From positions 5,458-69,457 of the forward strand of contig JAGQKV010000006.1 in assembly GCA_020429915.1 (NCBI GenBank): a stretch of 64,000 bases of DNA. The letters are read 5' to 3'. Positions within the stretch are counted from its first letter, which is position 1. Each line of letters starts with the position of its first letter. The notes under the pieces were generated by a model that saw only the letters and a list, made by a program, of their open reading frames with translations, was not told where the DNA came from and did not search any database. Below are positions 2,188 through 35,082 of this stretch, piece by piece. A program made the translations under genes and the position numbers. This DNA is from Candidatus Omnitrophota bacterium. Its GTDB lineage: Bacteria; Omnitrophota; Gorgyraeia; Zapsychrales; Zapsychraceae.

Positions 2188-2205
2188 AAGGCTGTCGCGT
2201 ATTCC

Positions 2206-5339: not shown

Positions 5340-5485
5340 CCCGGTTCCGTGTCCGGAAGTATCTGAATCTGTTGTCTTTTGCGGTCTTAGTACGGTATGA
5401 TAGTCAACAATGCGACCGTCTGCGGCGGGAATTGATCCGCGATCGCGTTGTCCAGAGCCGCCAACCGGTATCGGGGAATACGCCG

Positions 5486-8670: not shown

Positions 8671-9446
8671 TGGCAGATTTCTGGAAAGACAAGGTCGTGA
8701 TCGTCACCGGCGCTTCTTCGGGAGTGGGCCGCAGCTGCGTCGAGGAGATGTCCGCGCGGAGGGCCAAGGTTGTGCTGGCGGCCCGCCGGCTGGAGCGGAT
8801 GCAGGAAATCGGAGAGACACTTCCGCGGGAGTCGACGCTGATCGTTCAAACGGATGTGGGAAAACAGGGCCAGGTCGAGGCGATGGTCCGCCGGACGGTG
8901 GAACATTTCGGACGGGTGGACGTCCTGGTCAACAACGCCGCCGTCGGTATGGGCGGGAATGTGATCACCTGTCCGCTCGATAAATACGAAGAACTCATGC
9001 AGATCAATGTCTTCGGCGCGTTGTACTGCATGCGGGCCGTGTATCCGCACATGAAGGCACAGGGCGGCGGGGCGATTGTCAATGTCAGTTCGATCGCCGG
9101 CTTCAAAGGCTTTTACACCTGCGGGCTTTATGCCAGCTCCAAGCACGCCCTCAACGGCATGAGCGAAAGCTTAGGAGAAACGGCACGCAAAGACAACATT
9201 CACGTGGCGTTGATCTGTCCGGGAAAGATCGAGACGGAATTTGACCAGAAGCTTTTGTATTTCGAAGGGAAGCGCTCGACTGAGAACAGCGGCATCGAGC
9301 CGGTCGAAGTCTGCCGGGCGATCATGCGCGCCGTCGAGAAAAAGAAGTGCCTGATCGTCCTCGGAAAAAAGTGCATGCCGCTGTATTTGTTGAACCGACT
9401 GTCGCCGGAGCTGACGAACTTTCTGATCCGCAAGCTCTACGCCTGA
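8667..9446 (+). CDS. Short-chain dehydrogenase/reductase (SDR)
   Basis: 'VTGASSGVG' Rossmann motif and the 'YASSKHAL' catalytic YxxxK. About 259 aa, classical SDR length. Confidence 0.85.
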   Translation: MMADFWKDKVVIVTGASSGVGRSCVEEMSARRAKVVLAARRLERMQEIGETLPRESTLIVQTDVGKQGQVEAMVRRTVEHFGRVDVLVNNAAVGMGGNVITCPLDKYEELMQINVFGALYCMRAVYPHMKAQGGGAIVNVSSIAGFKGFYTCGLYASSKHALNGMSESLGETARKDNIHVALICPGKIETEFDQKLLYFEGKRSTENSGIEPVEVCRAIMRAVEKKKCLIVLGKKCMPLYLLNRLSPELTNFLIRKLYA

Positions 9447-9477
9447 CCGTGTCCCGGACGCGACTAAAATCGAATTC

Positions 9478-11226: not shown

Positions 11227-11241
11227 GAGAGAGGCGTCTGA

Positions 11242-13017: not shown

Positions 13018-13028
13018 GAGAGCGAAAG

Positions 13029-20120: not shown

Positions 20121-21389
20121 ATGACCAAGAAGTTACCCCGCGACAAGCGCGGCCCGCTCGTCGGGATTATATTCTTTCTCGTTCTTTTGTTTCTGATCGA
20201 AGCGGCGTCCTATTTGTGTCCGGCCAAACCCGACCGGCTGGAACGGATCCGCGCCGTATTGCGCCAGGACAGCCAGTTGTTCTGGCGCCAGCGCGCGCAT
20301 TTGAATACCGTCTTTGAGGGCGCGGCCGTACGGACCAACCGGTTGGGACTTCGCGACGAGCCGGTGAGCAAGGGCGGAAAGAAGCCGGTACTGCGCATCG
20401 TGACCCTCGGTGCCTCGCCGACATTCGGGTGGGGGGTAGAGCAAAACGATACCTACGCCCAGGTGCTTGAACGGATCCTGCGCGACACCTTAAATACCGA
20501 GCAGGTGGAGGTGATCAACGCCGGACAGATCGGTTTCAGTTCCTATCAGGGGCTGAAGTTTTTCCGGGAGGTGATCCTGCCGTTGAAGCCGAATATGATC
20601 ACCGTCTCGTATGTGATCAACGACGTGGACAAGTACCGGTTTTTCCGCAACCACTCGGCCCCTGACAGCCAGCTGAAGCCGCAGAGCGGATTGCTGGTGG
20701 CCGTGGAGAACGCGCTGGAACACAGCCGGTTTTTTCGTTTATATCGCAAGTTGGTCAACGGGACCAAATCGGCGTCGCAACAATTTTTCGGGGAGCGCGG
20801 CACCGGCGAATACCGGGAGTCACGGCGGGTGTCCCCGGAGGAATATCGCGCGAATATCACGGCACTGATCGATTTGGCACAACAGCACGGTATCGACGTG
20901 GTCCTGGTCAAGATGCCGGTCAATCTGCCGCAGCCGGTGAAGGTCCCGGAAAGCAATGTGATCCGGGCGAAGCAGACCGTGACCGAGGCGATGGTGTGGG
21001 CCGAGCGTGGTTACCGGGAGGAAGCCATCCGTTTACTGCAACAGGCGCTGGCGTACAATCCCAACACGCCCCGGGCGCACTATTATCTCGGGCAGCTCTA
21101 CCAGCGCACGGGCAAACGCAAGCAGGCCCGCAAACATTTTGAACGCACCGTTGTCCTGGAACTGTACGAATGCGCGCGGCTGGCCCTGGAGTACCACCGT
21201 GTGCTGGACGACATTGCCGCGCAGCGTGATGTTCGTCTGGTCGACGTGGTCACGGCCTTTGACGAATACCGCCGCTACGGCGGAGACTACCTGTTTCTGG
21301 ATCCGGAGCATGACACCATTCATCCCAACCGCACGGGTCACGCCGTGATCGGCTGGGCCATTTACGACGAAATCTTCGCGCGGCCGTGA
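20121..21389 (+). CDS. Membrane-anchored SGNH/GDSL-family hydrolase with an inserted TPR module
   Basis: N-terminal TM helix. Block I 'VTLGASPTFG', block III 'VINAGQIG', block V 'DTIHPNRTGH' (DxxHP). TPR-like 'AIRLLQQALAYNPNTPRAHYYLGQLYQRTGKRKQARKHFERT' sits between blocks III and V. Confidence 0.65.
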   Translation: MTKKLPRDKRGPLVGIIFFLVLLFLIEAASYLCPAKPDRLERIRAVLRQDSQLFWRQRAHLNTVFEGAAVRTNRLGLRDEPVSKGGKKPVLRIVTLGASPTFGWGVEQNDTYAQVLERILRDTLNTEQVEVINAGQIGFSSYQGLKFFREVILPLKPNMITVSYVINDVDKYRFFRNHSAPDSQLKPQSGLLVAVENALEHSRFFRLYRKLVNGTKSASQQFFGERGTGEYRESRRVSPEEYRANITALIDLAQQHGIDVVLVKMPVNLPQPVKVPESNVIRAKQTVTEAMVWAERGYREEAIRLLQQALAYNPNTPRAHYYLGQLYQRTGKRKQARKHFERTVVLELYECARLALEYHRVLDDIAAQRDVRLVDVVTAFDEYRRYGGDYLFLDPEHDTIHPNRTGHAVIGWAIYDEIFARP

Positions 21390-21686: not shown

Positions 21687-22439
21687 ATGAACAAAAACCA
21701 TATGAAAATAGCGACCGTCATCCTCATTGTGGGTGCTGTGGCCTATAGTGTGTATGTTTTCCTGCAGGAGAGCGGCCGCGCGCGCATGGAGCAGCATTGG
21801 TCGGGGCAGCGTTTTGCCGCGCGGGATTATTATCCGCTGACGCCCGGGAACAAGTGGACATATCGTATCAGTGGTGATGACGAGCAATCCCGTTTGGACG
21901 TCGAAATCACCCAACGGGTGCAGTGGCAGGGACGCGATGCCGTCCGGGTGACTTTCAACGACGCGGCTTCAAAGATTCTCGGATTCGCCGAGAGCGGTCT
22001 GGTTAAATATCAGGAGATCGACGACGGAGAACAGGAAGTTTATGATCCTCCAGGCAGCATATTGCCCGATTTGACGTTCGGCGAATCCAGGGTGTTTCAT
22101 CCCAAATACGTTATGCAAACGGCGGACGCGGAGGTCGCCACCCGGGCTGCCGCCGAAATGAGTTTTTGGCTGGATACCATCGAAAGCGTCAAGGTGCCGG
22201 CCGGCACTTTCCGGGATGTCCTGAAAGTCGGCTATTACGACCGTTGGGAAGAAGAGGACGGGAGTTTCGATATCAGCCGCGGATATATCTGGTTTGCCAG
22301 GGGCGTCGGGATTGTTAAAATCAAAGGCTCGGCCACCGAAGTCGATCCCGAGAGCGGTCGGCGCGAGACGGAAAAGGAAATGCACGTGCTGGTATCGTAT
22401 CATATCGCCGGCGATGCACGGGAGGGCCGTAGTGAATAA
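21687..22439 (+). CDS. Hypothetical membrane-anchored protein
   Basis: N-terminal TM helix followed by a ~200-aa soluble domain. Codon usage is consistent with neighbouring genes. No motif recognised. Confidence 0.45.
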   Translation: MNKNHMKIATVILIVGAVAYSVYVFLQESGRARMEQHWSGQRFAARDYYPLTPGNKWTYRISGDDEQSRLDVEITQRVQWQGRDAVRVTFNDAASKILGFAESGLVKYQEIDDGEQEVYDPPGSILPDLTFGESRVFHPKYVMQTADAEVATRAAAEMSFWLDTIESVKVPAGTFRDVLKVGYYDRWEEEDGSFDISRGYIWFARGVGIVKIKGSATEVDPESGRRETEKEMHVLVSYHIAGDAREGRSE

Positions 22440-23757
22440 AACAGACGCCCAACGGAATTGGGGATTAGTCGTGGCCGGCATTTTGGCCGCATTTTTGTTG
22501 TTGGAAGCCGGGCTGCGGCTGGCCGGTTTTGTCTTCATGCAAACCCAGCAGGCCAGTAACCGCCGGGCCTTGAACACCGCCGGTGCGGTGCGGGTGTTGT
22601 GTCTGGGGGAATCGACCACCGCGTTGGGCGGCGCGCATGCGTATCCGCAGCTGTTGGAGCAGATTCTCAACCAAAATCCGGACGGCCGCGTGTTTCGGGT
22701 CATCAACAAGGGCGTGCCCGGGATCACCACCGACCACATTCTTGCCGGGCTCGATGACACCTTGAAGAAGTATGAACCGCATGTCGTGGTGGCGATGATG
22801 GGGATCAACGACGAGGACGGGGACGCGTCCTCCTGGGAAGAGCGCCTGCTGCATAAGTCCCGCGTGGTGCGGTTGCTGCAACTGATCGGCCGTCACGCCG
22901 CGCAGTCCCTGCCGTTTACTCACGCTGCACGCGAGAAGAAACTCTTTGACGAATTCATGAACAGCTGGGAGCAGGGGACTTCCGGCGAACCCGGCAAGGC
23001 CGAGTCGCTTTTCCGTCGCCAGCTGCGGGATCATCCCGATGATGTCGATGCTTATCTTGAACTGGCCAACTGGTTGCTTGTGCTCGACAAAGACGACGAG
23101 GCCATGTCCTTACTCGATGAAGCACAACGCAAATTTCCCGACAATGACGACATTCAGCTCGGCAAGGGGATCGCTTACCTGTTCCAGGACAGATGGGATG
23201 ACGCGGCGCGCGAACTTTACAACTACATCCAGCATGTAGGATATAACGATGATGCCTATATGGGCCTCGGCTGGGCCTTCATGCGGCAGGGCAAATACCT
23301 CCAGGCCGAAGAGATCCTGCGGCAAAATCTGGCGTTGAATCCCACGGACGCGGCCTTCGGGGCGTTGATCCTGTGTTACGAAAAGCAGGGTAAAACGGCC
23401 ATGGCAGAGAAGTACGGGCGGTTGGCGGAGGAGCGGCGCGCGCGCCGGCTGCTGCCGGTGACCCAGGACCGGTATCGGGAGCTGTACGCGGAGCTTCACC
23501 GGCGCGGGATCCCGCTGGTGGCTGTCCAGTATCCGCGGCGGGATGTCGGCCTGCTGCAGGCGGTTCTGGGCGAACGGGAGGGAATCGCGTTCGTGGACAA
23601 CAAGGCGAGCTTCGACGCGGCAGTCGCCCGGGACGGCTACGAGACGTATTTTATCAACAATTTCGCCGGGGATTTCGGTCACGGCACGGCGACCGGCAAC
23701 CGGCTGCTGGCCGAGAACGTGGCTAAGGCGGTGCTCGGGCTGGTCACGACGTTTTAA
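22414..23757 (+). CDS. Membrane-anchored SGNH hydrolase with inserted TPR module (paralog)
   Basis: Start set at the ATG at 22414 (the track ORF starts at 22294 and would overlap the previous gene by ~145 nt). One TM helix. 'VLCLGESTTALGG' (block I), 'VINKGVPGITTD' (block III), TPR repeats at aa ~240-370, 'FAGDFGHGTATGNRL' (block V). Confidence 0.65.
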   Translation: MHGRAVVNKTDAQRNWGLVVAGILAAFLLLEAGLRLAGFVFMQTQQASNRRALNTAGAVRVLCLGESTTALGGAHAYPQLLEQILNQNPDGRVFRVINKGVPGITTDHILAGLDDTLKKYEPHVVVAMMGINDEDGDASSWEERLLHKSRVVRLLQLIGRHAAQSLPFTHAAREKKLFDEFMNSWEQGTSGEPGKAESLFRRQLRDHPDDVDAYLELANWLLVLDKDDEAMSLLDEAQRKFPDNDDIQLGKGIAYLFQDRWDDAARELYNYIQHVGYNDDAYMGLGWAFMRQGKYLQAEEILRQNLALNPTDAAFGALILCYEKQGKTAMAEKYGRLAEERRARRLLPVTQDRYRELYAELHRRGIPLVAVQYPRRDVGLLQAVLGEREGIAFVDNKASFDAAVARDGYETYFINNFAGDFGHGTATGNRLLAENVAKAVLGLVTTF

Positions 23758-23811
23758 GTGAAAATATGCTAGAATATAAATACTTATATTATTACCCGGA
23801 CAGGATTCCCC

Positions 23812-25269
23812 ATGACCAAGAGAAAACTCGCGCTCCGCTATAAGCTTCTTATCAGCCTGATCAGCCTGCTTTTTAGTCTGACCGCCCTCGAACTGGGATT
23901 GGCAGCCGTCGGCCGGATTTATTACAGCCCGGACGAGGTCTACCGGGACGATGAATTGGAGGCGACGGGTAACGGTCCGGCCAAGACCCTGGTGGCCGTG
24001 GGCGATTCCTTTACCCACGGCGGTCTGGTCGCCGGGGACGCCACCTACACCCACTTCCTGCGTCAAATCCTGCGTGAGCAACAATACACCGATTACCGCG
24101 TCAAGAATCTTGGGATCTGCGAACTCAACAGCGGCGAGTTGCTCAAACGCATCCCGCGGATTATCGACCGGAACCAGCCCTACGCCATCCTGCTCCTGGT
24201 CGGTGCGACCAACCGTTTTAATCCCTGGGACTACGAGGCCTACGCCAACAAGGACTTTGTCAGCACGCTGAAAAAGAATTTCTTCAATCTGCGCGTGGTG
24301 AAGATGGCGCGTTTTATCGGTCTGGCCCTGACGGCGAACCGCGATATGGACCGCAACGGTTTGCTCAGTCTGATCGGTCCCGGCGACCGCAGCCGCAATA
24401 CACGGCATGACCTGCATCTGGAATATCTCGAGGAACGGCAGGAGGAGGCGGACATAAATTCCCCCGACGAGGTCGCCCGGGTGTGGGCTCTTTACAAGGA
24501 GGGCCGTAAAGCCGAAGCCCTGCACCGGGCCGAAAAACTCTTCACCGGACGCAGCCCGCGGGGACGCGAACTGCTGTTCGCCCTGACCTATTTTTACCTG
24601 AAGAATGACCGGCCCGATAAGGTTCAGGAAATGATCGCCTTGGCCACCAAAAACGACCGGGAGTCCGAGGAGATCCTCAATTTCATGACGTTCTACCGTT
24701 TTGAGCTGGCCCGCTGGCATCGGGAGCATTTGCAATATGACGAAGCCATCGACTGGTATCTTAAGGCCATCGCACTCGATCCGGATGCCGATTATTTTTT
24801 CTTTGAGCTTAACAAGATTTTCGATCTGCAGAGCCGGTATACCTCCAAGATGCTTTACGACAAACTCGCGGCGCTCGCCGACGAAAATCCGGACATCGCG
24901 CTCAGCCGGATGTATCAGAATCATCTCAAGCTCTACCGTGACAAACAAAAGTGGGAAGACGGAATCGGGGACTGGCTGCGGCATGATCTGGACGCCATCG
25001 CTGCCCTCTGTCGGCAGCGCGGGATCAAGCTGATTATCCAAAAGTATCCCGTGTCGTATCCGTTGGCGAATTCGGTGATCGAGGAGATTGCCCGTAAGTA
25101 CGACCTGCCCGTCGTCGATCATTTGACCCGCTTCCGTGACCTGGAACCGAAGAAAGATTATCTTTACGATGATGATCACTGCACGCCTGCCGGGCACCGG
25201 ATCATGGCGGAGAATATATACAAAACGCTGGTCAAGACGCAAACGGTCACTCATGAAAAGACAAATTAG
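23812..25269 (+). CDS. Membrane-anchored SGNH hydrolase with inserted TPR module (paralog)
   Basis: TM helix. 'LVAVGDSFTHGG' (GDSxx block I). TPR-like region ('ALYKEGRKAEALHRAEKLF', 'YDEAIDWYLKAIALDPDADYFF'). C-terminal 'DDDHCTPAGHRIMAENI' (block V DxxH). Confidence 0.65.
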   Translation: MTKRKLALRYKLLISLISLLFSLTALELGLAAVGRIYYSPDEVYRDDELEATGNGPAKTLVAVGDSFTHGGLVAGDATYTHFLRQILREQQYTDYRVKNLGICELNSGELLKRIPRIIDRNQPYAILLLVGATNRFNPWDYEAYANKDFVSTLKKNFFNLRVVKMARFIGLALTANRDMDRNGLLSLIGPGDRSRNTRHDLHLEYLEERQEEADINSPDEVARVWALYKEGRKAEALHRAEKLFTGRSPRGRELLFALTYFYLKNDRPDKVQEMIALATKNDRESEEILNFMTFYRFELARWHREHLQYDEAIDWYLKAIALDPDADYFFFELNKIFDLQSRYTSKMLYDKLAALADENPDIALSRMYQNHLKLYRDKQKWEDGIGDWLRHDLDAIAALCRQRGIKLIIQKYPVSYPLANSVIEEIARKYDLPVVDHLTRFRDLEPKKDYLYDDDHCTPAGHRIMAENIYKTLVKTQTVTHEKTN

Positions 25270-26758
25270 CAATGTCCATCTGATCCGCACCTTTATTCCG
25301 GTCGGCACCGGCGGACCCATTCCGCCGCTGGAGATGCTGTATGTGGCTTCGCAACTGCGCCGGACCTTCGCAGACACATTGCAACTGCGCTTGACGGACA
25401 CCGGTGTGGGAAATTTGAGTGTAGAGGATATCCGGGATGAATGGGGTGGGTTCGCTCCGGACCTGATCATCCTCTACGCGTTGTCGTGGGAAGCCGGTTT
25501 GGTCCACGCGCTCGCCGCGGTTGTCAAAGAGCTTCATCCCGATACGGCGGTCGTTGTCTTCGGGCAATTGGCCACGTTTTCGGGTCAGTACCTGTGCGAG
25601 GATCCGCATATCGATTTTGTGGTGGTCGGCGAGCCGGAGCTGACGGTCGCGGAACTGGTGGGGGCGCTGCGGGAGGAGCACAAAGATCTGAGTAGTATCA
25701 ACGGACTTGCTTACCGTGTGGACGGCGCCGTGACAATGACCGCGCCGCGGGTGTATCCCGACAATATCGATGCGTTTGAAATCATCCCGGAGATGTGGGA
25801 TGCCATCGATATCCGCCGTTACGCGCAGTACGAAAACTGGAACGGGGCGATCAAGGAAGACTTTTATATTCCCATCCTGACGCAGCGTGGATGCCCGTTC
25901 AAGTGCACGTTCTGCCGGGAAACGTACGGCAAGAAATTTCACGCCCGCTCGCCCGAGCACGTGCTGGCCGAAATAAAATTCCTGCACGAACGGTACGGAG
26001 CCAGAGAGTTTCATATTTACGATCCGGTCTTTAACTATGACCAGGACCGCGCCAAGCGGATTTGTCAGCTGATCATTGATGCCGGTTTACCGATCAGTCT
26101 GGCTTTTCCTCACGGGGTCCGTGCCGACATCATGACCGAGGAATTGCTGACCCTGATGCGCCGCGCCGGCACGTACAAATTGGTGTACGGCATTGAGTCG
26201 GCATCGCGGCGGCTGCAGAAGGCCTTCCGTAAAAATCTGAACCTCGAGCAGGTGCGCGAGATCATCCGCGTGACGGCGGACAAGGGTATCATCACCGGCG
26301 GCTATTTCATGCTCGGCCATCTCAGCGAAACCGCCGGGGAGATTGAAGAGACCATTCGCTTTGCCGTCACCTCGGACCTCGACGTGGCCTCGTTTTTCAA
26401 GGCCACCGATTATGATGACGTCAACAAGATCTACGCGTCCAAGTTCAAAGACAACCTCGACGACACGGATATCTTCGCCGGGATTCGCGACATCGCGTAT
26501 TACGCCGTGAACCGGTCGCAGGCCGCGGTGGACGCGGCGGAGTTGAACCGGCTGGTTCTGTCGGCACAGCGCCGGTTTTATTTTCACCCGCGCCGGATAT
26601 GGCGGGGATTCGGTCGGTATCCGAGCAAACGCAAATACATTAAGAATCTGATGACCGCTGCAGGGCTGATCCTGCAAGGGTATATCGTTCAGTCCCTGAC
26701 GGCGGACACAACCGCGAAAAAGCCGGCGGCCGGAGCCGTCGCGCATTCGCATGCCTGA
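25253..26758 (+). CDS. B12-binding-domain radical SAM enzyme
   Basis: Start at the ATG at 25253 (MKRQISNVH..), overlapping the previous stop by 17 nt. 'TQRGCPFKCTFC' CX3CX2C motif with an N-terminal cobalamin-binding-like domain. Confidence 0.7.
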   Translation: MKRQISNVHLIRTFIPVGTGGPIPPLEMLYVASQLRRTFADTLQLRLTDTGVGNLSVEDIRDEWGGFAPDLIILYALSWEAGLVHALAAVVKELHPDTAVVVFGQLATFSGQYLCEDPHIDFVVVGEPELTVAELVGALREEHKDLSSINGLAYRVDGAVTMTAPRVYPDNIDAFEIIPEMWDAIDIRRYAQYENWNGAIKEDFYIPILTQRGCPFKCTFCRETYGKKFHARSPEHVLAEIKFLHERYGAREFHIYDPVFNYDQDRAKRICQLIIDAGLPISLAFPHGVRADIMTEELLTLMRRAGTYKLVYGIESASRRLQKAFRKNLNLEQVREIIRVTADKGIITGGYFMLGHLSETAGEIEETIRFAVTSDLDVASFFKATDYDDVNKIYASKFKDNLDDTDIFAGIRDIAYYAVNRSQAAVDAAELNRLVLSAQRRFYFHPRRIWRGFGRYPSKRKYIKNLMTAAGLILQGYIVQSLTADTTAKKPAAGAVAHSHA

Positions 26759-26760
26759 TC

Positions 26761-26961
26761 ATGAAAACGATACGGAAAATAATGGCTTTTATCTTGTGCG
26801 GGATCGGATTGATTTTGCCGTGGAAGCTGCGCTGCATCTACATCGAGATCCTGGGCTGGATCACCCAGTTTGTTTATTTGTCTTATATCGTCATTCTCAA
26901 ATTTATTCTACAGGAACTGCAAAAGGCCAAGGCCGAACAGGCAAACTATGAAACTCAATGA
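26761..26961 (+). CDS. Small hydrophobic protein (two TM helices)
   Basis: 66-aa ORF starting 3 nt after the upstream stop. Hydrophobic. Overlaps the next start by 14 nt. Confidence 0.3.
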   Translation: MKTIRKIMAFILCGIGLILPWKLRCIYIEILGWITQFVYLSYIVILKFILQELQKAKAEQANYETQ

Positions 26962-27799
26962 GACGGCGACACTATTTTCAGGCGGGACCGACTCGACGCT
27001 GACCGCGGCCTTGATGGCCGAGAAGTTCGACAAGATCCATCTTATCACTTATGACCGATTCGCGTTTTCGTCGGTCATGAATCCGATGGTGAACGTTAAG
27101 AAGCTGCGCGATAAGTACGGCGAGGACAAGTTCGATTTCCACGTCATCAAGGTCGAGAAGCTGACCCGTTTCGTTTTCTACGAACGTTACTTGCACAACA
27201 TCCGTAAACACGGCTTCTTCTTATTGACGATATGCGGATTGTGCAAACTGGCGATGCACGTGCGTACCGTGATCTTTTGCCTGGAAAACGGGATCCCCAA
27301 TGTCTGCGACGGCGCCAATCAGGGCATGCACCTGTTCCCGGCCCAGATGGCCAGCGTGATCAAGGAGTACGGCGATATGTACACGCGCTACGGGATCACC
27401 TATTCCAATCCCGTATTTAAATATGAAGGGCCGCAAGATCTGGATTTTACGGACCGCCTGCGTCTGGAGCGCGTGCTGTCCCGGGACAAGGAGCCTGCAA
27501 CCGCGACGGCCGCACGCACCGCCAACACCACCGGCCGCAAACTGTATGAACTGGGCCTGATGCCGTCGGAAAACGTGAAGGGCACCGAACTCGACCGGAG
27601 GATGCAGCCGCGCTGTTTTCAATTTATCCTCTTTAATGTCTTCGTCCACTGGTTTTATCTGGCGGACCATACGTATGAAGAATACCAGGACGCGACGGTC
27701 CGGTTTTATCAGGATAAAATTCGGGCCATGGTGAAGCATTTGGATGACTATGCCGCCGCCGGCGCTGACAGCCGGTTGGCGAGAATGATCGAAAGGTGA
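26948..27799 (+). CDS. PP-loop superfamily ATP pyrophosphatase (putative sulfurtransferase/adenylyltransferase)
   Basis: Start at the ATG at 26948. 'LFSGGTDST' is the SGGxDS PP-loop motif. Conserved Cys pairs ('CGLCKLAMH','FCLENGIPNVCDGAN'). Confidence 0.65.
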   Translation: MKLNETATLFSGGTDSTLTAALMAEKFDKIHLITYDRFAFSSVMNPMVNVKKLRDKYGEDKFDFHVIKVEKLTRFVFYERYLHNIRKHGFFLLTICGLCKLAMHVRTVIFCLENGIPNVCDGANQGMHLFPAQMASVIKEYGDMYTRYGITYSNPVFKYEGPQDLDFTDRLRLERVLSRDKEPATATAARTANTTGRKLYELGLMPSENVKGTELDRRMQPRCFQFILFNVFVHWFYLADHTYEEYQDATVRFYQDKIRAMVKHLDDYAAAGADSRLARMIER

Positions 27800-27800
27800 A

Positions 27801-28169
27801 TTGATGATCGGTGATACCGGTTGCTGCGGATTTTCGGGGATACAGAAAGGGCCGAACCTGTTCGGGCTGCTGACGCTGTCGGTGCCGATGCTGGTGGTGT
27901 GCCTGGCAGTTTACCCGCTGATGTTTGTGCTCGGCGCCTTTAATCCGGCTGCGGCCCGACGCAGAGACCAGGTCCGGATCATCATCCGTGCCAACTTCAA
28001 TCTGATCCATCAAAAGACGTTCTTTCCGTTGTTCCGCTGTAAGATGGCCGGCACCGTGTTCCGTTTCTCACCGCGGTTGTCCGGATTGCTGTACCGTTCG
28101 TTTAATCTCGCCGCCTTTTTATTGATCTGGTTATGCGTGTTGTTGCCGGTCTTGGCGTGGATAAAATAG
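27801..28169 (+). CDS. Small membrane protein
   Basis: 122-aa ORF starting right after the upstream stop, with 3 hydrophobic helices. Confidence 0.35.
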   Translation: MMIGDTGCCGFSGIQKGPNLFGLLTLSVPMLVVCLAVYPLMFVLGAFNPAAARRRDQVRIIIRANFNLIHQKTFFPLFRCKMAGTVFRFSPRLSGLLYRSFNLAAFLLIWLCVLLPVLAWIK

Positions 28170-28172
28170 CTT

Positions 28173-29390
28173 ATGAGTTTGGATATCAACGCAATCCGTA
28201 ACGACTTTCCCGCGCTGCAACGCCTCATCAAAGGCAAACCGCCGGTTTATTTCGACAATGCCTGCATGACCCTGCGGCCGCAGACGGTTATCGACGCGAT
28301 GACGCACTATTACCGGGAACACCCCAGCTGTCATCGCCGGTCGATCCACAAATTCGGCAAGGAAACCACCGCCGCGTATGATAAAGCCAAGAAAACGGTG
28401 CGCGCGTATATCAATGCCAAGGACGCCGATGAGATCGTCTTTACCAAAAACGCCACCGCCGGGATCAACATTGTCGCGCACGGTTTGAACTTTCAGCCCG
28501 GGGATGTCCTTCTGACGACGACGCTGGAACACAACTCCAATTTCTTACCGTGGCAATTCGTGGCCAAAAAGGCGGGGGCGAATCTCGCGGCGGTGCCGTT
28601 GACGCCGGAACTGACCTTTGATCTGGACGCGTATCGCAAGGCCCTTACCGATGAGGTCAAGGTCGTGGCCGTTCCGCATAAGAGTCACATCACAGGGTAT
28701 ACCTATCCGGTCAAAGAGATCATTCAACTGGCCCACGCGCGGGGCGCGGTGGTGCTGATCGACGCGGCGCAAAGCGCGGCCCAGGACGACATCGACGTCC
28801 AGGAGCTGGATGCGGACTTCCTGGTGTTTTCTTTTCACAAGATGCTCGGTCCCAGCGGCACAGGCTGCCTGTACGGAAAGAAGAGTTATCTGGACAACCT
28901 GACGCCGGTGTTTATCGGCGGGGAGACCGTAGACGATGTCAGTCACAACGCCTATGCGTTAACCAAGGTCCCGGAACGGTTCGAGGCGGGGCTGCAGGAT
29001 TACGCCGGGGCAATGGGCGTGACCGCGGCAGTGGAATATTTGCAGCGTGTCGGTCGTCCTGCCGTCCGCGCGCATATCGGGAAATTGAACGCCTTGGTCA
29101 CCCAAGGCATCTCGGAATTGCCCAAGGTCCGCATCCTCGGTCCGGCCGCGGCGGCACAACGCGGCGGGATCGTTAATTTCCAGATCGACGGCATGGATGC
29201 GGGTGAGTTGTCGATCATTCTCGATGAAACCGACAATATCATGACCCGCAGCGGGGTGCATTGCTGCCACGCGGGATACAAACGGCACAATCTGAGCCCG
29301 AGTTTACGGGTATCGTTTTATATGTATAATACAGAACAAGAAGCGGAGCTTTTTGTCGACCGGCTGAAGAAGATCGTCCGTTTTTTCTAA
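28173..29390 (+). CDS. Cysteine desulfurase, class V aminotransferase (SufS/CsdA-like)
   Basis: 'FSFHKMLGPSGTGCLYG' is the PLP-lysine region; 'TRSGVHCCHAGY' matches the SufS active-site Cys loop (RxGxHCA). Confidence 0.8.
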   Translation: MSLDINAIRNDFPALQRLIKGKPPVYFDNACMTLRPQTVIDAMTHYYREHPSCHRRSIHKFGKETTAAYDKAKKTVRAYINAKDADEIVFTKNATAGINIVAHGLNFQPGDVLLTTTLEHNSNFLPWQFVAKKAGANLAAVPLTPELTFDLDAYRKALTDEVKVVAVPHKSHITGYTYPVKEIIQLAHARGAVVLIDAAQSAAQDDIDVQELDADFLVFSFHKMLGPSGTGCLYGKKSYLDNLTPVFIGGETVDDVSHNAYALTKVPERFEAGLQDYAGAMGVTAAVEYLQRVGRPAVRAHIGKLNALVTQGISELPKVRILGPAAAAQRGGIVNFQIDGMDAGELSIILDETDNIMTRSGVHCCHAGYKRHNLSPSLRVSFYMYNTEQEAELFVDRLKKIVRFF

Positions 29391-29393
29391 AAC

Positions 29394-30692
29394 ATGAATA
29401 TACTGCTGATCAAACCGTACTGGCCTTATCCCTACGGCAAAGGGGAGCACACCTATAACCGTATATGGCCGCCGTTGTCGCTGGCGAATTGCGCTGCGAT
29501 TCTGGAACAGCGGGGGCATACGGTGGCCATCCTCGACGCGCACGCGCGGCGTATCCGCCCCCGATATATCGCGCGGCACATCGGCGGCTACGACAAGATA
29601 TTCCTGACATCATCTTCCTTGGACCGCTGGCAGTGTCCCAACGTCAATATGGTCCCCTTCTACGAAACCACCTCCGCGCTACGCGAGGCAGGCGCCGGGT
29701 TTTACGTGATGGGTTATCACGGGACTGTCGACGCGCAGAATGTCTTGGAACAGAGCGGGGCGCGCGCCGTCATCCGCGGCGGGCCCGAATTCATCGTAGC
29801 CGATATTTGCGCCGGCACCCCGCTGGCACAGATCAACGGCGTGAGCTATTTTGAAGGCGAAACCTTCCGCGCCAATCCCGATTACGGCAATTTCGAACTG
29901 ACCGAGCTGCCGGTACCGGCGTTTCATCTGCTCGATATCGACAAATATTTCTACGAGATTCTGGGCAAACGGTTCATGCTGTTCGAACTGGGCCGGGGCT
30001 GCAACTTCGGCTGCAAGTTTTGCAACCGCATCATGTACGCGCCCAAGCTGCGGGTGAAGACCAGCGAGCAGATGTGCGAAGAGGTGCGGACGGCCGTGGA
30101 GGAGCACGGCGTGAAGACGGCCTATTTCATGGACCTGGAATTTCTGCACTACAAAAATCATGTCAGCCGGCTGTGCGACTTCTTGATTGAAAAGAACTAT
30201 AACTTCAAATGGTGCTGCCAGACGCGGGCCGATTCGGTTGACCCGGACATTCTCGCGAAAATGAAGCAGGCCGGTTGTCAACTCATCCACGTCGGGGTGG
30301 AGAGCGGAACGAAAAAATACCTCGACCTCACCAACAAGTCCATTTCCCCTGAGCAGATTTTGGAGGGGGTCTCCATGTGTCGGGCCGCCGGGATCAAGAC
30401 GCTGGCCTTTTATATGTTCGGGTTAAAAGAGGAATCGGAAGACGACCGCCGGGAGACGTTTCGCTTTGCCAAAAAGCTGAACACCAACTTTGTCTCCTTC
30501 CACAAGGTCTATCCGTACCTGAAGAGCAATGTGTACATGCCGGATATCAATTTCAACAAATACATCGATAATTACATCCGCCGGGTGTATATCCAGTACT
30601 ACCTCCGTCCGGAATACATCTGGAGTTCGGATATGCTGACCCTGCTGCGCAGTTTCCGGGTGTTCATGGGGCGTTTACTGACTCTTATATGA
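29394..30692 (+). CDS. B12-binding-domain radical SAM enzyme
   Basis: 'GRGCNFGCKFC' CX3CX2C motif. N-terminal Rossmann-like domain ('ILLIKPYW..LSLANCAAILEQRGHTVAILD'). Confidence 0.7.
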   Translation: MNILLIKPYWPYPYGKGEHTYNRIWPPLSLANCAAILEQRGHTVAILDAHARRIRPRYIARHIGGYDKIFLTSSSLDRWQCPNVNMVPFYETTSALREAGAGFYVMGYHGTVDAQNVLEQSGARAVIRGGPEFIVADICAGTPLAQINGVSYFEGETFRANPDYGNFELTELPVPAFHLLDIDKYFYEILGKRFMLFELGRGCNFGCKFCNRIMYAPKLRVKTSEQMCEEVRTAVEEHGVKTAYFMDLEFLHYKNHVSRLCDFLIEKNYNFKWCCQTRADSVDPDILAKMKQAGCQLIHVGVESGTKKYLDLTNKSISPEQILEGVSMCRAAGIKTLAFYMFGLKEESEDDRRETFRFAKKLNTNFVSFHKVYPYLKSNVYMPDINFNKYIDNYIRRVYIQYYLRPEYIWSSDMLTLLRSFRVFMGRLLTLI

Positions 30693-32722
30693 TGAATCCC
30701 ATCCGTATATCCATCATCCTTCCCGTTTACAATGAAGAAGCGAATATTCAGCGCACTGTTGAAGAGGCGGCGCAGTGGTTGAAGCAGTGCGCCGGTATCT
30801 CCGCTTACGAAATCGTGGCGGTGAACGACGGCAGCCGCGACAACAGCGGTAAAATCCTGGAGCGTTTGAAAACCGAAGTCGAGAATCTCGTGGTGGTGGA
30901 CTATCCCGGGAACAAGGGATACGGAGGCGCGCTGGTGAGCGGGATTCGCGTGGCCCGTTACGACTGGATCCTGCTGATGGACTCCGACGGACAGTTCAAG
31001 ATGGACGCGCTGGCCGGTCTGCTCGAGTATACAGAGGAACACGACATCGTGGCCGGATACCGCCGGCAGCGGCAAGATAATTTCCTGCGCATCTGGCTCG
31101 GCGAGCTGTATACATTCCTGGCCGGCGCCTTCCTGAAGGTTCGGCTGCGCGACATCAACTGCGGATTCAAATTGTTCCGCAAATCTTTTCTGGATGTCGA
31201 CGGGATCAACACACATGCCGGCGCATTTTATACCCATGTCTTTATGAACGCGCACGCCAAGAACGCGCGGATCAAGGAAGTCCCGGTTGCGCATCACCCG
31301 CGCCCGGCCGGACGGTCGACAGGAGCCAGCCCCAAGGTGGTGATGATGGCCGTCAGTGATTTTTGGGACCTGCTGTTCGGTCGGGGACGGTCATCCGCCG
31401 CGCCGACACGCACGTCATGGGCCGGCAAAGCGGGCCTGCTGATCCTCGGTTGTTTTCTGACGCTGGTCGTGCTCGAGGTAGGCATGCGGACGTCCGGCGC
31501 CCTGATCACCACGGCGCAGTCTTTGCAGAACCGTTTGGCTGTCCGTGACGACAGCCGCTACCGCATTCTGTGCGTGGGGGAATCGACCACCTTCTTCGGG
31601 ACCTACAATTACGCGTATCCGCATATGCTCGAGGAGATCCTTAACCAGCACCCGGCCGGAAGCGAGTACCGGGTCTTTAATGAAGGACAGATCGGCACCG
31701 ATACGGATGAAATTCTCGAAGACCTGTCGGACCATCTGCGACGGTACCGACCGCACATGGTGATCGCGATGATGGGTGTCAACGACGCCTTCGGAGAGGA
31801 TTTGGGAACGGTGCCGGCGGGAGGGTTCTCGCATTTGCGTGTGGTCCGTTTGATGCAGCTCATTCGTCGTCACTGGCAGGAAAAGTTCGGGTCCTATCGC
31901 GGTGACCGCCATGTCGAACGGGGATACGAGTTTTTGAGTGACGGTGACATCGAGGAGGCGTGGGCGGAGGTGGAACGGGCCCGGCGGGCCGGTGCGCCGC
32001 CGGCGGAAATTGAAGCTCTGACCGGACATATCCATTGGCTGGCTGCCGGTGATTTCGACCGGTCGGCGGCGGCCTATGACAAGGCCCTCAGTCTGGACCC
32101 CGGCCGCGAGTGGCTTTATGAAGATTATTTTCAGGTCCTGTACTACGGCAATCGTTATGAAGAGGCTGCCGGTGTGATGCAACGGATGCTGGCCCGCTTT
32201 CCCAAATCAGAGGATGCCTACCGGAAGCTGGGGAAGGTGTATCTTCAACTGAAACAGTACGACAAACTCGAGGCCCTCCTGCAAAAGGCGGACGAGCAGG
32301 TTCCCGATGATCCGGGGATGATCAGGATCCGGGCGGCCTATCATCTGGCCAAGGGGGAAACCGACCGGGCCGAACGTCTTTTTGAACGCTATGCCGAGTA
32401 TGAACGTCAACACACCAATCCGCGGACGGCGGATAATTACCGTATCCTGCGGGATACGGTCCTGGCCTCGGGGGCTGAATTGGTAGCCGTACAGTATCCG
32501 TTGCGGGACGTGGATTCGCTCAAGGCCATGCTGAACAATGACCGGCGGGTCACTTTCGTCTCCAACGAGGATAATTTCAAGTCAGCGGTCCTGGAACACG
32601 GCTACGGCCAGCTCTTCACCGACCAATTTGCCGGCGACTTCGGTCATTTGAGCGACCGCGGGAACCGTCTGCTGGCCGGTGCGGTGGCCGAAGCGATTTT
32701 AGGGCATCTGCAAAGGCGGTAA
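30689..32722 (+). CDS. Fusion protein: GT2 (DPM1/GtrB-like polyprenyl-phosphate glycosyltransferase) plus SGNH hydrolase with TPR insertion
   Basis: N-terminal 'ISIILPVYNEE...VAVNDGSRDNS...LMDSDGQ' is a GT2 DxD-type domain. A TM helix follows, then 'RILCVGESTTFFG' (block I), 'VFNEGQIGTDTD' (block III), TPR repeats and 'FAGDFGHLSDRGNRL' (block V). Confidence 0.7.
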   Translation: MMNPIRISIILPVYNEEANIQRTVEEAAQWLKQCAGISAYEIVAVNDGSRDNSGKILERLKTEVENLVVVDYPGNKGYGGALVSGIRVARYDWILLMDSDGQFKMDALAGLLEYTEEHDIVAGYRRQRQDNFLRIWLGELYTFLAGAFLKVRLRDINCGFKLFRKSFLDVDGINTHAGAFYTHVFMNAHAKNARIKEVPVAHHPRPAGRSTGASPKVVMMAVSDFWDLLFGRGRSSAAPTRTSWAGKAGLLILGCFLTLVVLEVGMRTSGALITTAQSLQNRLAVRDDSRYRILCVGESTTFFGTYNYAYPHMLEEILNQHPAGSEYRVFNEGQIGTDTDEILEDLSDHLRRYRPHMVIAMMGVNDAFGEDLGTVPAGGFSHLRVVRLMQLIRRHWQEKFGSYRGDRHVERGYEFLSDGDIEEAWAEVERARRAGAPPAEIEALTGHIHWLAAGDFDRSAAAYDKALSLDPGREWLYEDYFQVLYYGNRYEEAAGVMQRMLARFPKSEDAYRKLGKVYLQLKQYDKLEALLQKADEQVPDDPGMIRIRAAYHLAKGETDRAERLFERYAEYERQHTNPRTADNYRILRDTVLASGAELVAVQYPLRDVDSLKAMLNNDRRVTFVSNEDNFKSAVLEHGYGQLFTDQFAGDFGHLSDRGNRLLAGAVAEAILGHLQRR

Positions 32723-33920: not shown

Positions 33921-34005
33921 GTGGAAAACCCGTGGAAAACTTTGTGGGCAGGTGATCAGTATCGGGAATTTTTTGTGAAATATCTAGTTTATTTCGTTGT
34001 TGGTC

Positions 34006-34034
34006 TTGCAATCGAAATCATTGTGTTTTATATT
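34006..34034 (+). promoter_or_regulatory. Candidate sigma70-like promoter in the AT-rich region upstream of the PilZ genes
   Basis: TTGCAA(34006-34011)-N17-TATATT(34029-34034). The intergenic region 33921-34172 is about 35% GC. Confidence 0.3.
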
Positions 34035-34172
34035 TGAGGTAAGTTTCTCCGGAAAGCGTTTTCACTCCTGTCCATCGCATCTCTAGGTGAAAATAATTTA
34101 GATTTTAGTTGCAAACCCTTGAAAGATTGTTAGACTGAACATTAACAATCCGAGTAAATTAGAGTATATCTA

Positions 34173-34508
34173 ATGCCGAAAGTTCTCAACAAGCGTAGGA
34201 CCAAACGTCTCAGTTGTGAAGTTCCCCTCGAAGGGCAAAAGGGTAGTGTCTTTGAAGCCACCCAAGTTGTCGACTTCAGTAAAGGGGGACTAGGATTCGT
34301 ATCTTCTCGACGGATTCCCGTCAACAAACGCATCCCCATCCAACTCGATCTTCAGGAAGATGACATGCCCGTGCTGGTCATCGGCCGCGTCAAGTGGTCC
34401 CGTCCGATCAACGGCACCGGACAATACCGCGTCGGAATCACCTTTGAAGAGGTGATGCACGGATCAAAAACCCGCCTTCAGGAATTTTTCCGTAACAACC
34501 ATGAATGA
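34173..34508 (+). CDS. PilZ-domain c-di-GMP-binding protein
   Basis: 'RRTKRL' (RxxxR) and 'DFSKGGLGF' (D/NxSxGG) PilZ signatures. Confidence 0.7.
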   Translation: MPKVLNKRRTKRLSCEVPLEGQKGSVFEATQVVDFSKGGLGFVSSRRIPVNKRIPIQLDLQEDDMPVLVIGRVKWSRPINGTGQYRVGITFEEVMHGSKTRLQEFFRNNHE

Positions 34509-34851
34509 AGAAATCCGTAAGGACGACCGCCGGTTGTTCGAACGGTTTTCGGCCCGCTATCCCGCGCGATTTAAAGACGAGCGTGAAGACTTCGGGGAGA
34601 AAATCTATCTGCGCGATGCCTCGGCTTTCGGGGCGCGTTTATCAGGACGCGACCGTCTTTTTCTCAACGACAAAATCAGCATTGAAGTCGATGTTCCCGA
34701 CGGCATGGCGCCCATGGATCTGAAAGGCGAAGTGGTGTGGATCAGCAAGAATGCCCAGAACGTCTGGGATTTCGGAATCCGTTTTCATAAGGTTGAGTTG
34801 CTGCGCCTCGCCCGTCTCTACAAATTCCACGTTAACACCCTGCCCGCCTGA
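34501..34851 (+). CDS. PilZ-domain protein (second, tandem)
   Basis: 'RRLFER' (RxxxR) and 'DASAFGARL' (DxSxxG). Overlaps the first PilZ gene by 8 nt. Confidence 0.6.
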   Translation: MNEEIRKDDRRLFERFSARYPARFKDEREDFGEKIYLRDASAFGARLSGRDRLFLNDKISIEVDVPDGMAPMDLKGEVVWISKNAQNVWDFGIRFHKVELLRLARLYKFHVNTLPA

Positions 34852-35082
34852 CGGTTGGAAGCCGGGTTAAACCCCGATTTCCTGACCGCGACCGTTTAGT
34901 CCCCGGACATGTGACCGTTCCATACCCTTTGTTCAGGGGATCTGCCGGGTCCTGCCGCCTGCACGGGCACGTTTGCGGTGCAGGGTAAAGGCGGGTGAAT
35001 TCAGCTTGACCTGTCTGTCCCTGCCATGCTAAACTTTTGCCTCTATTAATTTCCCAGCTGGTTTCGTAGCCAAGACGCACCG

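Follow-up and report, generated by a model that had tools for sequence, protein, structure and literature searches.

The window analysed here is a 64,000-nucleotide stretch of a Candidatus Omnitrophota genome (assembly GCA_020429915.1, contig JAGQKV010000006.1, positions 5,458 to 69,457 of the forward strand), and all coordinates below refer to it. Positions 26761-29390 hold a cassette of four genes encoding a small hydrophobic protein, a PP-loop ATP pyrophosphatase, a protein with two transmembrane (TM) segments and an N-terminal Cys-Cys pair (hereafter the CC-protein), and a pyridoxal phosphate (PLP) enzyme resembling cysteine desulfurases, which we tentatively interpret as a system that inserts sulfur into an envelope-glycan precursor at the membrane. 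All four open reading frames (ORFs) were confirmed; they are co-directional on the + strand, overlapping or 4 nt apart, and are as follows.

26761..26961, + strand: 66-aa small hydrophobic protein (ORF; no Pfam, NCBIfam or PADLOC match)
26948..27799, + strand: 283-aa PP-loop (AANH) ATP pyrophosphatase of an unclassified YcfA-like family (profile and fold comparison with the PDB)
27804..28169, + strand: 121-aa two-TM CC-protein (alignments, profile search, hydropathy)
28173..29390, + strand: 405-aa SufS-type (type II) cysteine desulfurase-like PLP enzyme (Aminotran_5, TIGR01979 and solved SufS matches)

The start of the PP-loop gene is most likely the ATG at 26948 (MKLNETATLFSGGTDS), replacing the TTG at 26870, and the gene read from this ATG overlaps the end of the 66-aa ORF (stop codon 26959-26961) by 14 nt. 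Similarly, the start of the CC-protein gene is most likely the ATG at 27804, replacing that of a 122-aa ORF from 27801, because the homologues, which are 121 aa long, have MIGDTGCCG as their first residues. The SufS-like gene starts 4 nt past the stop of the CC-protein gene, and the next gene, encoding a B12-binding radical S-adenosylmethionine (B12-rSAM) protein, starts 4 nt past the stop of the SufS-like gene. An initial annotation of this DNA had described an SGGxDS PP-loop protein with conserved cysteines beside a class-V cysteine desulfurase, and the ORFs, the motif, the cysteines and the Aminotran_5 domain were all confirmed. Its proposal that the two enzymes form a functional pair agrees with the conserved order and tight coupling of the genes, and the YcfA-YcfC pair likewise installs sulfur (PMC12494993).

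Loci carrying orthologs of the PP-loop gene are labelled L001-L088 and so on, and neighbour counts out of 51 refer to species-representative loci with at least 4 kb of flank on each side. The order small ORF, PP-loop gene, CC-protein gene and SufS-like gene is present in approximately 26 of 80 species-representative loci, and because the same order recurs in this way the adjacency of the four genes is not due to chance. It is found in Omnitrophota, which supply the closest syntenic loci, in Elusimicrobiota, in Bacteriovoracia, in a Gottesmanbacteria metagenome-assembled genome (MAG) and in several poorly labelled MAGs, and the complete cassette is carried by the cultivable predator Bacteriovorax stolpii (L001, CP030035, approximately 191.8-194.4 kb). 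Both small ORFs are real genes, with conservation at the protein level at the same position across several phylum-level labels.

The PP-loop protein carries the motifs SGGTDS, C96-G-L-C99-K, C111, DGAN, F130-P-A-Q133, K211-G, D216 and Q220-x-R-C223-F-Q. Its Pfam and NCBIfam matches are all short, N-terminal, located around SGGTDS and below the cut-offs. QueC was rejected (PF06508, 17.4 against 22 bits; TIGR00364, 19.5 against 150.3 bits; only residues 34-62 match), and the QueC-type C-terminal zinc motif CxxCxxC is not present in the PP-loop alignment. AsnB (Asn_synthase, 16.3 bits against a cut-off of 21), QatC (23 bits against a cut-off of 280; PADLOC QatC, 16.5 bits) and PRK14561 (a motif-level match only, far under the cut-off) were rejected likewise. 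The DndC and SspD models in PADLOC gave no match, and the protein contains no THUMP, RNA-binding or zinc-finger domain and no extra CxxC pairs at its termini. The initial annotation had held that classification as QueC or as a tRNA-modifying enzyme would indicate a housekeeping role, and no such class was reached with the Pfam and NCBIfam models. DUF7411 (PF24167) matched only 38 residues, with 20.4 bits where 28.7 are required, and a weak precomputed PF24167 match is present on many of the homologues; judged on these matches, DUF7411 would be at best a distant relative of the family. No paper found in the searchable literature mentions DUF7411; the PP-loop family itself is undescribed there, the papers on YcfA included, and an Omnitrophota genome preprint makes no mention of the cassette. 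The homologues form 270 clusters of proteins of approximately 280 aa, nearly all unnamed, in a collection of 5.8 billion proteins, and the family is rare and patchy, with 116 matches in a collection that represents 185,579 species by one genome each.

When a profile of 27 PP-loop homologues was compared with the PDB, YcfA was matched with an E value of 7e-19 over YcfA residues 11-166, and all other matches were at 2e-3 or worse. The AlphaFold2 (AF2) model of the protein has a pLDDT of 83.8, and a Foldseek search with it returned YcfA chains as all of the top 20 matches (E approximately 1e-9, target-normalised TM-score 0.72-0.79), followed by carbapenam synthetase, TtuA, NcsA, MnmA, NAD synthetase, QueC and LarE (E 3e-5 or worse, query-normalised TM-score at most 0.40). 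Every match at E <1e-3 is an AANH enzyme, and the fold is the Rossmann-like alpha/beta fold of that superfamily. On these comparisons the PP-loop protein is assigned to the AANH superfamily and is classified as none of QueC, the tRNA thiolases, LarE, AsnB and DndC. The initial annotation was therefore too strong in calling the PP-loop protein and the desulfurase a canonical duo, as the former belongs to no canonical thiolase family and sulfur transfer by it is a prediction. YcfA, of the 6-thioguanine system of Erwinia amylovora (PDB 9KQ6/9KQ7/9KQ9/9KQD), adenylates the C6=O of a guanine nucleotide and adds free L-cysteine, and the cysteine adduct is then cleaved to the thioamide by YcfC, a PLP enzyme of class V in which the desulfurase cysteine is missing (PMC12494993). 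By analogy, YcfA and the PP-loop family are likely to have in common that a carbonyl is first adenylated with ATP and its oxygen then exchanged for sulfur.

The SGGTDS motif (S11-S16) is present in all aligned orthologs, with Thr14 replaced by Ser in 3 of 82, and K211-G212, D216 and Q220 are invariant in an alignment of 83 sequences. In the same alignment C223, within Q-x-R-C-F-Q, is found in 83/83 orthologs and C111 in 82/83, that is, in all that align there, while C96 is kept in 76/83 and C99 in 74/83 (approximately 90% for the CxxC). In the model, C96 and C99 lie at the N-terminus of helix 95-114 and C223 opens helix 224-237. C111 is unlikely to share a metal site with C96 and C99, because approximately four helical turns would separate them in the model. 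The pattern C96xxC99...C223 presumably recalls the spacing of the three-Cys [4Fe-4S] site of TtuA, TtcA and NcsA. Six loci (L036, L038, L046, L051, L055 and L061) carry two tandem PP-loop paralogues, either before the CC-protein/SufS pair or alone, which could form a heteromeric enzyme; these MAGs are labelled Rickettsiales or Enterobacterales, and the labels look unreliable.

The SufS-like protein matched Aminotran_5 with 379 bits and TIGR01979 (SufS) with 426.9 bits, under the cut-off of 475.1. It aligned over its full length with solved structures (4W91, E 3e-97; B. subtilis SufS, 5e-92; E. coli SufS/CsdB, approximately 1e-74), the E values for solved SufS/CsdB ranging overall from 3e-97 to 1e-73, as against only about 1e-22 for the C-DES lyase. 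The PLP lysine Lys223 (SFHK) and the catalytic cysteine Cys364 (RSGVHCCHAGY) align to those of solved SufS; Lys223 is present in every cassette ortholog and Cys364 in every one that reaches that position, so that the catalytic cysteine alignment called for in the initial annotation is in place. Unlike YcfC, the protein looks like a true desulfurase, and by sequence it is placed as a divergent branch of the type II desulfurases. A cassette-specific loop motif was considered and rejected, because R-S-G-x-H-C-x-H-x-W-F/Y is common to a larger group of unnamed class-V enzymes. A SufS-like protein with 96% identity is present in an NCBI 'Candidatus Omnitrophica' MAG. No SufE/SufU-like gene was found among the window proteins scanned; in the related loci, Pfam annotation covered few of the proteins.

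The CC-protein consists of a disordered N-terminal arm with the Cys-Cys pair, two strong hydrophobic segments (17-51 and 95-122), a basic loop with SPRxSG, and a mostly conserved cysteine (C79 counted from the ATG at 27804, C80 from 27801). Its AF2 model is all-helical, with the N-terminal arm predicted to be disordered, and with a pLDDT of 68.6 is too weak for a fold search. No Pfam or NCBIfam match and no detectable similarity to SufE, SufU or CsdE were found, the profile search returning the protein's own family only. An exhaustive profile search of 1.84 billion proteins yielded 91 cluster representatives, all stand-alone proteins of 111-167 aa except for approximately eight likely fragments of 77-97 aa; no fusions or remote homologues were among them. 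The Cys-Cys pair is invariant in the CC-proteins examined, namely 31 locus orthologs and the most distant representatives (MACCG, MGCCS, MVCCGG). The gene is always immediately 3' of the PP-loop gene, and the SufS-like gene nearly always comes next; in L088 and L032 the PP-loop and CC-protein genes are followed by an SGNH or radical SAM (rSAM) gene without SufS. Among the 51 loci the CC-protein and SufS-like genes co-occur almost strictly, the exceptions being L009 (contig end) and L036/L062. We propose that the CC-protein is a persulfide acceptor and shuttle between the SufS-like and PP-loop enzymes, acting as a non-homologous replacement of SufE/SufU.

The 66-aa protein, which matched nothing in Pfam, NCBIfam or PADLOC, carries a conserved LPxxxR followed by an E-x-LGW-x-TQ-x-x-Y-x-x-Y helix, and in an alignment of 79 sequences of the family all have P20 and at least 90% have R24. 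With a marginal hydropathy (peak 1.74), it is perhaps less a classical TM protein than a hairpin at the membrane interface or a hydrophobic subunit. It is proposed to serve as a membrane tether or subunit of the PP-loop enzyme. Where the initial annotation had seen two tiny TM proteins bracketing the ATPase, both are indeed conserved genes and the 121-aa protein has two strong segments, but the 66-aa protein is only marginally hydrophobic. A RiPP (ribosomally synthesised and post-translationally modified peptide) precursor or a sulfur carrier was considered for the small ORF and rejected, since the hydrophobic helices are conserved, with neither a variable core nor a conserved cysteine.

To place the cassette among its neighbours, counts were made over the 51 loci. 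A homologue of the 66-aa protein lies directly 5' of the PP-loop gene in 48/51 loci and an SGNH gene is found no more than 4 kb away in 44/51, whereas the SufS-like gene is beside it in 19/51 and the CC-protein gene in 18/51; a B12-rSAM gene is found within 4 kb in 19/51 and a SPASM-type rSAM gene in 8/51. Across species the CC-protein/SufS pair is present in approximately 37% and absent from approximately 63%, and an SGNH cluster is present in 60/82 loci. All-vs-all clustering of the locus ORFs gave no further universal partner; the recurrent neighbours are carbamoyltransferases (17 loci), DUF5989 (9 loci) and a Bacteriovoracia-specific rSAM (13 loci). These data demonstrate that the core unit is the small protein, the PP-loop enzyme and one or more membrane-anchored SGNH proteins, and that the CC-protein/SufS pair, being so much less frequent than the small ORF and the SGNH genes, is an accessory sub-module. 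The pairing of the PP-loop gene with the desulfurase in the initial annotation needs correcting to this extent, the small ORF and SGNH genes being the tighter partners of the family.

The context was of a glycan-modifying type in every lineage examined, with GT-C, GT2, GT9, DegT, SGNH, carbamoyltransferase, SxtJ and DUF5989 proteins. A homologue of the B12-rSAM gene at 25253-26758 lies approximately 1.6 kb 5' of the PP-loop gene in about 15 loci, and a B12-rSAM gene directly follows the SufS gene only in L006, L007, L012 and L019. The rSAM gene after SufS in Bacteriovorax is unrelated to the window B12-rSAM (BLASTP E 0.59). A five-gene module including the downstream rSAM gene was therefore rejected, as the gene after SufS varies (B12-rSAM, SPASM, SGNH or another rSAM family) and these rSAM proteins are unrelated. 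In L001 and 17 other loci, a NodU/CmcH-type carbamoyltransferase with the small membrane proteins SxtJ and DUF5989 lies near the cassette; this enzyme resembles the PP-loop enzyme in being adenylate-forming and in being accompanied by tiny membrane proteins. In L077 (Bdellovibrionales, JADJOF010000001, 8482-12876), an SGNH gene on the - strand adjoins a small ORF, a CxxC-less PP-loop gene, an anchored SGNH gene, DUF5989 (SxtK-like) and a gene for a 254-aa secreted-looking protein; the genes on either side of this module are unrelated to it, and its vicinity contains neither a glycosyltransferase nor a desulfurase nor a carbamoyltransferase gene.

In the window, the host operon spans approximately 268-33920 on the + strand of a chromosomal fragment with a GC content near 0.55. 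From its 5' end it encodes seven polytopic GT-C/YfhO-like membrane proteins, a DegT aminotransferase and a short-chain dehydrogenase/reductase (SDR). Two SPASM rSAM and two B12-rSAM genes, three tandem genes for membrane-anchored SGNH-TPR proteins and a third B12-rSAM gene (25253-26758) make up the middle, and the four cassette genes, a fourth B12-rSAM gene (29394-30692), a GT2-TM-SGNH-TPR fusion gene and a GT9 gene the 3' part. The rSAM genes of the operon number six, four of the B12 type and two of the SPASM type, and the initial annotation was right to place the cassette among B12-rSAM genes in a glycan cluster with six rSAM enzymes. In the GT2-TM-SGNH-TPR fusion, a hydrophobic segment (243-269) separates the two catalytic domains, and their union in one polypeptide implies that sugar activation inside is coupled to ester or acyl chemistry outside. 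The genes closest to the cassette are the following.

23812..25269, + strand: membrane-anchored SGNH/GDSL-TPR protein, one of three tandem paralogues (Lipase_GDSL_2 and TPR; N-terminal hydrophobic anchor)
25253..26758, + strand: B12-binding radical SAM protein directly 5' of the cassette (Radical_SAM and B12-binding domains; no NCBIfam equivalog reached; start checked)
29394..30692, + strand: B12-binding radical SAM protein directly 3' of the SufS-like gene, not a conserved cassette member
30689..32722, + strand: fusion of GT2 (polyprenyl-phosphate sugar synthase-like), TM segment, SGNH and TPR (Glycos_transf_2, 105 bits; Lipase_GDSL_2; TPR)

Taken together, the cassette may exchange oxygen for sulfur on an adenylated precursor of an envelope glycan, with the machinery tethered to the membrane and the sulfur supplied as persulfide, a reading to which we give a probability of roughly 45%. 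The SufS-type enzyme would take sulfur off L-cysteine as a persulfide on Cys364, a step predicted from homology and from the conserved catalytic residues. The Cys-Cys arm of the CC-protein would receive this persulfide, as SufE and SufU do for ordinary SufS, and the CC-protein would pass the sulfur to the YcfA-like PP-loop enzyme, kept at the membrane by its small hydrophobic partner. The PP-loop enzyme would adenylate a carbonyl or carboxyl oxygen of the substrate with ATP, and sulfur held at C96, C99 and C223 (possibly at a three-Cys Fe-S site as in TtuA) would displace AMP to give a thio-carbonyl, that is, a thioamide or a thiocarboxylate. The steps beyond the Cys364 persulfide are suggested by the synteny, by the precedent of YcfA and by two substitutions relative to it, namely protein cysteines in place of a free-cysteine site and a PLP partner with a desulfurase cysteine. 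A persulfide route is favoured over a cysteine-adduct route because the PLP partner keeps the persulfide cysteine that YcfC lacks. In species without the CC-protein/SufS pair, sulfur might come from housekeeping desulfurases, or another nucleophile might be used. The probable substrate is an intermediate of the neighbouring glycan pathway, a sugar linked to a nucleotide or to polyprenyl phosphate, as suggested by the invariable glycan-type context (the GT2 being a GtrB/ArnC-like domain fused to SGNH), and the F-P-x-Q motif of the PP-loop enzyme would fit a planar amide or base. Of the two products named in the initial annotation, a thiosugar and a thiolipid, either would be compatible with the sequence.

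Several points weigh against this interpretation. Because the SufS-like gene is found in only 19 of the 51 loci, sulfur chemistry may not be the general function of the family. In a PP-loop subclade (L059, L066, L074-L077, L079 and L081) one or both CxxC cysteines are missing: TCGLCKLAMH is replaced by (T/A)-(P/C)-G-(F/Y)-(S/T)-(S/T)-L-S-W-H and R-C-F-Q by D-C-Y-P, while C111 and C223 are kept, and these enzymes may use another nucleophile or sulfur route. No significant association was found between CxxC status and the presence of SufS (Fisher p = 0.25). An Fe-S site on the PP-loop enzyme is possible, its basis being the cysteine pattern and the positions of the modelled secondary structure. 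If the positive-inside rule is applied, the CC-protein may have its N-terminus on the periplasmic side, where a cytoplasmic SufS could not reach it. Furthermore, all four cassette members are known here from sequence analysis and prediction, and we know of no thio-modified bacterial envelope glycan.

The main rival follows from the greater constancy of the SGNH and small-ORF partners relative to SufS: the PP-loop enzyme could be an ATP-dependent activator, forming an acyl- or carbonyl-adenylate, of a glycan decoration carried out with the small protein and SGNH proteins, to which the SufS/CC-protein pair would be a lineage-specific addition. The activated group could then pass through thioesters on Cys223 or on the CC-protein to outward-facing SGNH domains, loosely as in DltA/DltX/DltD, an analogy that we draw from general knowledge; alternatively, ammonia or an amine could serve as the nucleophile, as it does in the PP-loop enzymes that form acetamidino or uronamide groups. 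The neighbour counts (48 and 44 against 19 of 51), the minimal modules of the L077 type without desulfurase and glycosyltransferase, and the existence of the CxxC-less subclade all fit such an activator, as do the N-terminal anchors of the SGNH proteins and the GT2-TM-SGNH fusion, which suit an outward-facing transferase. However, no MBOAT/AT3-type acyl translocase, glutaminase or ammonia-delivering partner was found among the recurrent neighbours, and the conservation of C111 and C223, the approximately 90% conservation of the CxxC and the repeated recruitment of a desulfurase in several lineages fit sulfur chemistry better, as does the O-to-S exchange catalysed by YcfA, the nearest characterised relative. 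We consider this explanation unlikely, though a serious one. It is improbable that the SufS-like enzyme, perhaps with the CC-protein, supplies sulfide or Fe-S clusters to the six rSAM enzymes while the PP-loop enzyme has an unrelated role, the second option that the initial annotation had raised. Six rSAM genes do surround the cassette, 13/17 SufS-positive loci have an rSAM gene of some kind within 10 kb, and the Bacteriovoracia rSAM family lies within approximately 3 kb of the cassette in 13 loci, directly after SufS in five; but rSAM neighbours are not enriched with SufS (13/17 SufS-positive against 14/23 SufS-negative loci), and L014, L015, L038 and L046 carry the cassette with no rSAM gene detected. 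Moreover, no scaffold gene (SufBCD, SufU, IscU or NifU) was found in the window and none is recurrent in the related loci, where small clusters are unannotated. The SufS-like gene always follows the PP-loop and CC-protein genes whatever type of rSAM is nearby, and the rSAM genes adjacent to SufS are not orthologous between lineages.

Two further explanations were considered. A literal YcfA-YcfC pathway would place free L-cysteine on an adenylated nucleotide, with the class-V enzyme acting as a C-S lyase, and would yield a thionucleotide antimetabolite or signal. YcfA is the closest solved relative in both sequence and fold, the base-stacking and aligning F-P-x-Q is conserved, and the pairing with a class-V PLP enzyme is alike; nevertheless, this pathway has only a slim chance of being correct, as the L-Cys site (R18, Y128 and Q129) and the general base (E134) of YcfA are not conserved and the PLP enzyme keeps its catalytic cysteine and matches SufS (E 1e-92 to 1e-97) far better than C-DES (1e-22). 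YcfA-YcfC also works without membrane partners, and the genomic context here is glycan, not nucleotide, metabolism. Finally, tRNA or cofactor thiolation (ThiI, MnmA, TtcA, TtuA, QueC or LarE-like) and DNA phosphorothioation (DndA/DndC or SspA/SspD-like) all use, as their standard pair, a PP-loop protein and a cysteine desulfurase, and weak N-terminal matches to QueC and QatC were obtained. Such a housekeeping or defence role is very improbable, because these matches are confined to the PP-loop motif and far under the cut-offs, PADLOC found no DndC or SspD, and the fold likeness to TtuA, NcsA, MnmA and LarE is poor (query-normalised TM-score <0.4). The THUMP, RNA-binding and zinc-finger domains are lacking, the family is rare and patchy, and the membrane partners and glycan-type neighbours are always present.

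Elsewhere in the window, downstream of the operon, lie genes for GH94, an ABC sugar transporter, GH2 and a LacI regulator, followed by the housekeeping genes MnmG, BioB, LeuRS and ComEC. A PALP-family (cysteine synthase-like) gene at 50042-51004, approximately 20 kb downstream among MnmG, BioB and LeuRS, is the sole other sulfur-amino-acid enzyme gene in the window and is probably unrelated to the cassette. The interval 33921-35082, between GT9 and GH94, comprises approximately 1.16 kb without an ORF of at least 150 aa, and searches of it gave neither an Rfam family nor a tRNA nor a convincing terminator; the window as a whole likewise yielded no RNA gene, riboswitch or tRNA. Between 20 and 36 kb, promoter-like sites are at the level of chance (11 against 8.8 expected), and the 29 terminator-like sites (17.7 ± 5.4 expected) are short and scattered inside genes. 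The seven consecutive polytopic membrane proteins of 268-14804 have 6-12 hydrophobic segments each and comprise a YfhO-like, a PMT_2 and a PMT_2-TPR protein and four with weak or no Pfam matches; the genes at 11242-13017 and 13029-14804 are tandem duplicates (49% identical), and this GT-C-like transferase set is unusually large for a single operon. The tandem SGNH-TPR paralogues lie at 20121-21389, 22294-23757 and 23812-25269, and a 250-aa single-TM ORF without a family (21687-22439) lies between the first and second of them. A 786-aa ORF on the - strand (23110-25470), which lies over two SGNH-TPR genes and the beginning of the B12-rSAM gene, is most likely spurious, because it is wholly antisense to three domain-bearing + strand genes and its translation seems to be of low complexity. 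Comparable antisense ORFs of the PP-loop gene form a cluster in 39 loci.

A PP-loop enzyme with a cysteine desulfurase is the standard route by which cells exchange oxygen for sulfur, in tRNA, cofactors, DNA and 6-thioguanine, and to our knowledge no such pair has so far been tied to envelope glycans or to membrane-embedded partners. Three protein families for which no curated model exists travel together over distant and mostly uncultured phyla: the PP-loop enzyme related to YcfA, the small hydrophobic protein and the CC-protein, the latter two without described relatives. If sulfur does enter the glycan, this would be a new chemical modification of bacterial surfaces with a new type of persulfide carrier. 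A broader claim, which we regard as doubtful, is that the cassette is the first dedicated thio-carbonyl machinery acting on an envelope glycan or lipid-linked sugar, with a new class of membrane persulfide carrier (two TM segments and an N-terminal Cys-Cys) replacing SufE/SufU and linking a desulfurase of the SufS type with a YcfA-like adenylating enzyme that is tethered to the membrane, and that the wider unit of PP-loop enzyme, small protein and SGNH proteins is a new ATP-driven glycan-decoration system in Omnitrophota, Elusimicrobiota, Bdellovibrionota, Myxococcota and the candidate phyla radiation (CPR). If sulfur does not enter the glycan, that unit is still a widespread and unexplained ATP-dependent envelope-modifying module. 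In either case Bacteriovorax stolpii offers a cultivable organism in which the function of the cassette can be tested.

Among known systems, those that join a PP-loop enzyme to sulfur or carbonyl chemistry each share some features with the cassette. TtuA, TtcA and NcsA (Ncs6) are [4Fe-4S] PP-loop thiolases that bring sulfur to an adenylated carbonyl, and the CxxC...C pattern of the PP-loop protein is, as we assume, at a spacing comparable to that of their cluster ligands; however, no profile match was found, the fold match is weak (E approximately 1e-4, query-normalised TM-score 0.33-0.37) and the zinc-finger and RNA-binding features are missing here. LarE activates a carboxylate by adenylation and, by way of a conserved cysteine, turns it into a thiocarboxylate, and it shares the PP-loop and a DG-x-N motif after strand 4, but it too matches weakly in fold (E 4e-4, query-normalised TM-score 0.29), gives no profile match and has other partners. 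In the DndA-DndC and SspA-SspD systems a cysteine desulfurase and a PP-loop ATPase are likewise encoded together, although the DndA and SspA models score only 144-151 bits on the SufS-like enzyme against 427 for SufS, and PADLOC found none of the partners DndB, DndD, DndE, SspB and SspC, nor restriction partners, with the cassette. The sugar amidotransferases of the WbpG/WbuX/PseA type are PP-loop enzymes of polysaccharide clusters that adenylate the acetamido carbonyl of an N-acetyl sugar and exchange its oxygen for a nucleophile, the ammonia coming from HisH/HisF-like partners, and by analogy they would set a precedent for the proposed kind of substrate; they differ in that the PP-loop protein matches none of them in NCBIfam or Pfam and HisH/HisF-like partners are lacking here. 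The SufS-SufE/SufU systems resemble the cassette in the full-length match of the PLP enzyme, the conserved lysine and cysteine, and the small cysteine-bearing protein encoded next to it, and differ in that the match is below the NCBIfam SufS cut-off, that the adjacent protein has two TM segments and an N-terminal Cys-Cys, and that SufBCD are absent.

The closest likeness is to YcfA-YcfC, which also combines a PP-loop AANH enzyme with a class-V PLP enzyme and which provides the best and sole strong PDB match of the PP-loop protein. The YcfA residues that stack and align the substrate (F132, P133 and Q135) have identical counterparts here in F130, P131 and Q133, and YcfA Cys113 corresponds to C111. 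However, the two proteins are only approximately 19% identical, and the L-Cys site of YcfA (R18, Y128, Q129) is replaced here by T14, G126 and M127 and its general base E134 by A132; across the PP-loop orthologs position 126 is G/E/N/A/D, position 127 M/L/W and position 132 A/D/G/S. The PP-loop family also has extras that YcfA does not, namely C96xxC99, C223, a disordered insert of approximately 30 residues and C-terminal helices, and YcfA requires a two-layer heptameric (14-mer) assembly for activity, whereas the model here is of a monomer. YcfC, a C-S lyase, is without the catalytic cysteine, which the PLP partner here keeps as Cys364, that of a desulfurase. The cassette further differs in its two membrane-associated partners and in a glycan instead of a purine context. 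Altogether, while it is without the defining mechanistic features of YcfA, the cassette resembles the known pairs of PP-loop enzyme and desulfurase, and among them it is nearest to YcfA in structure.

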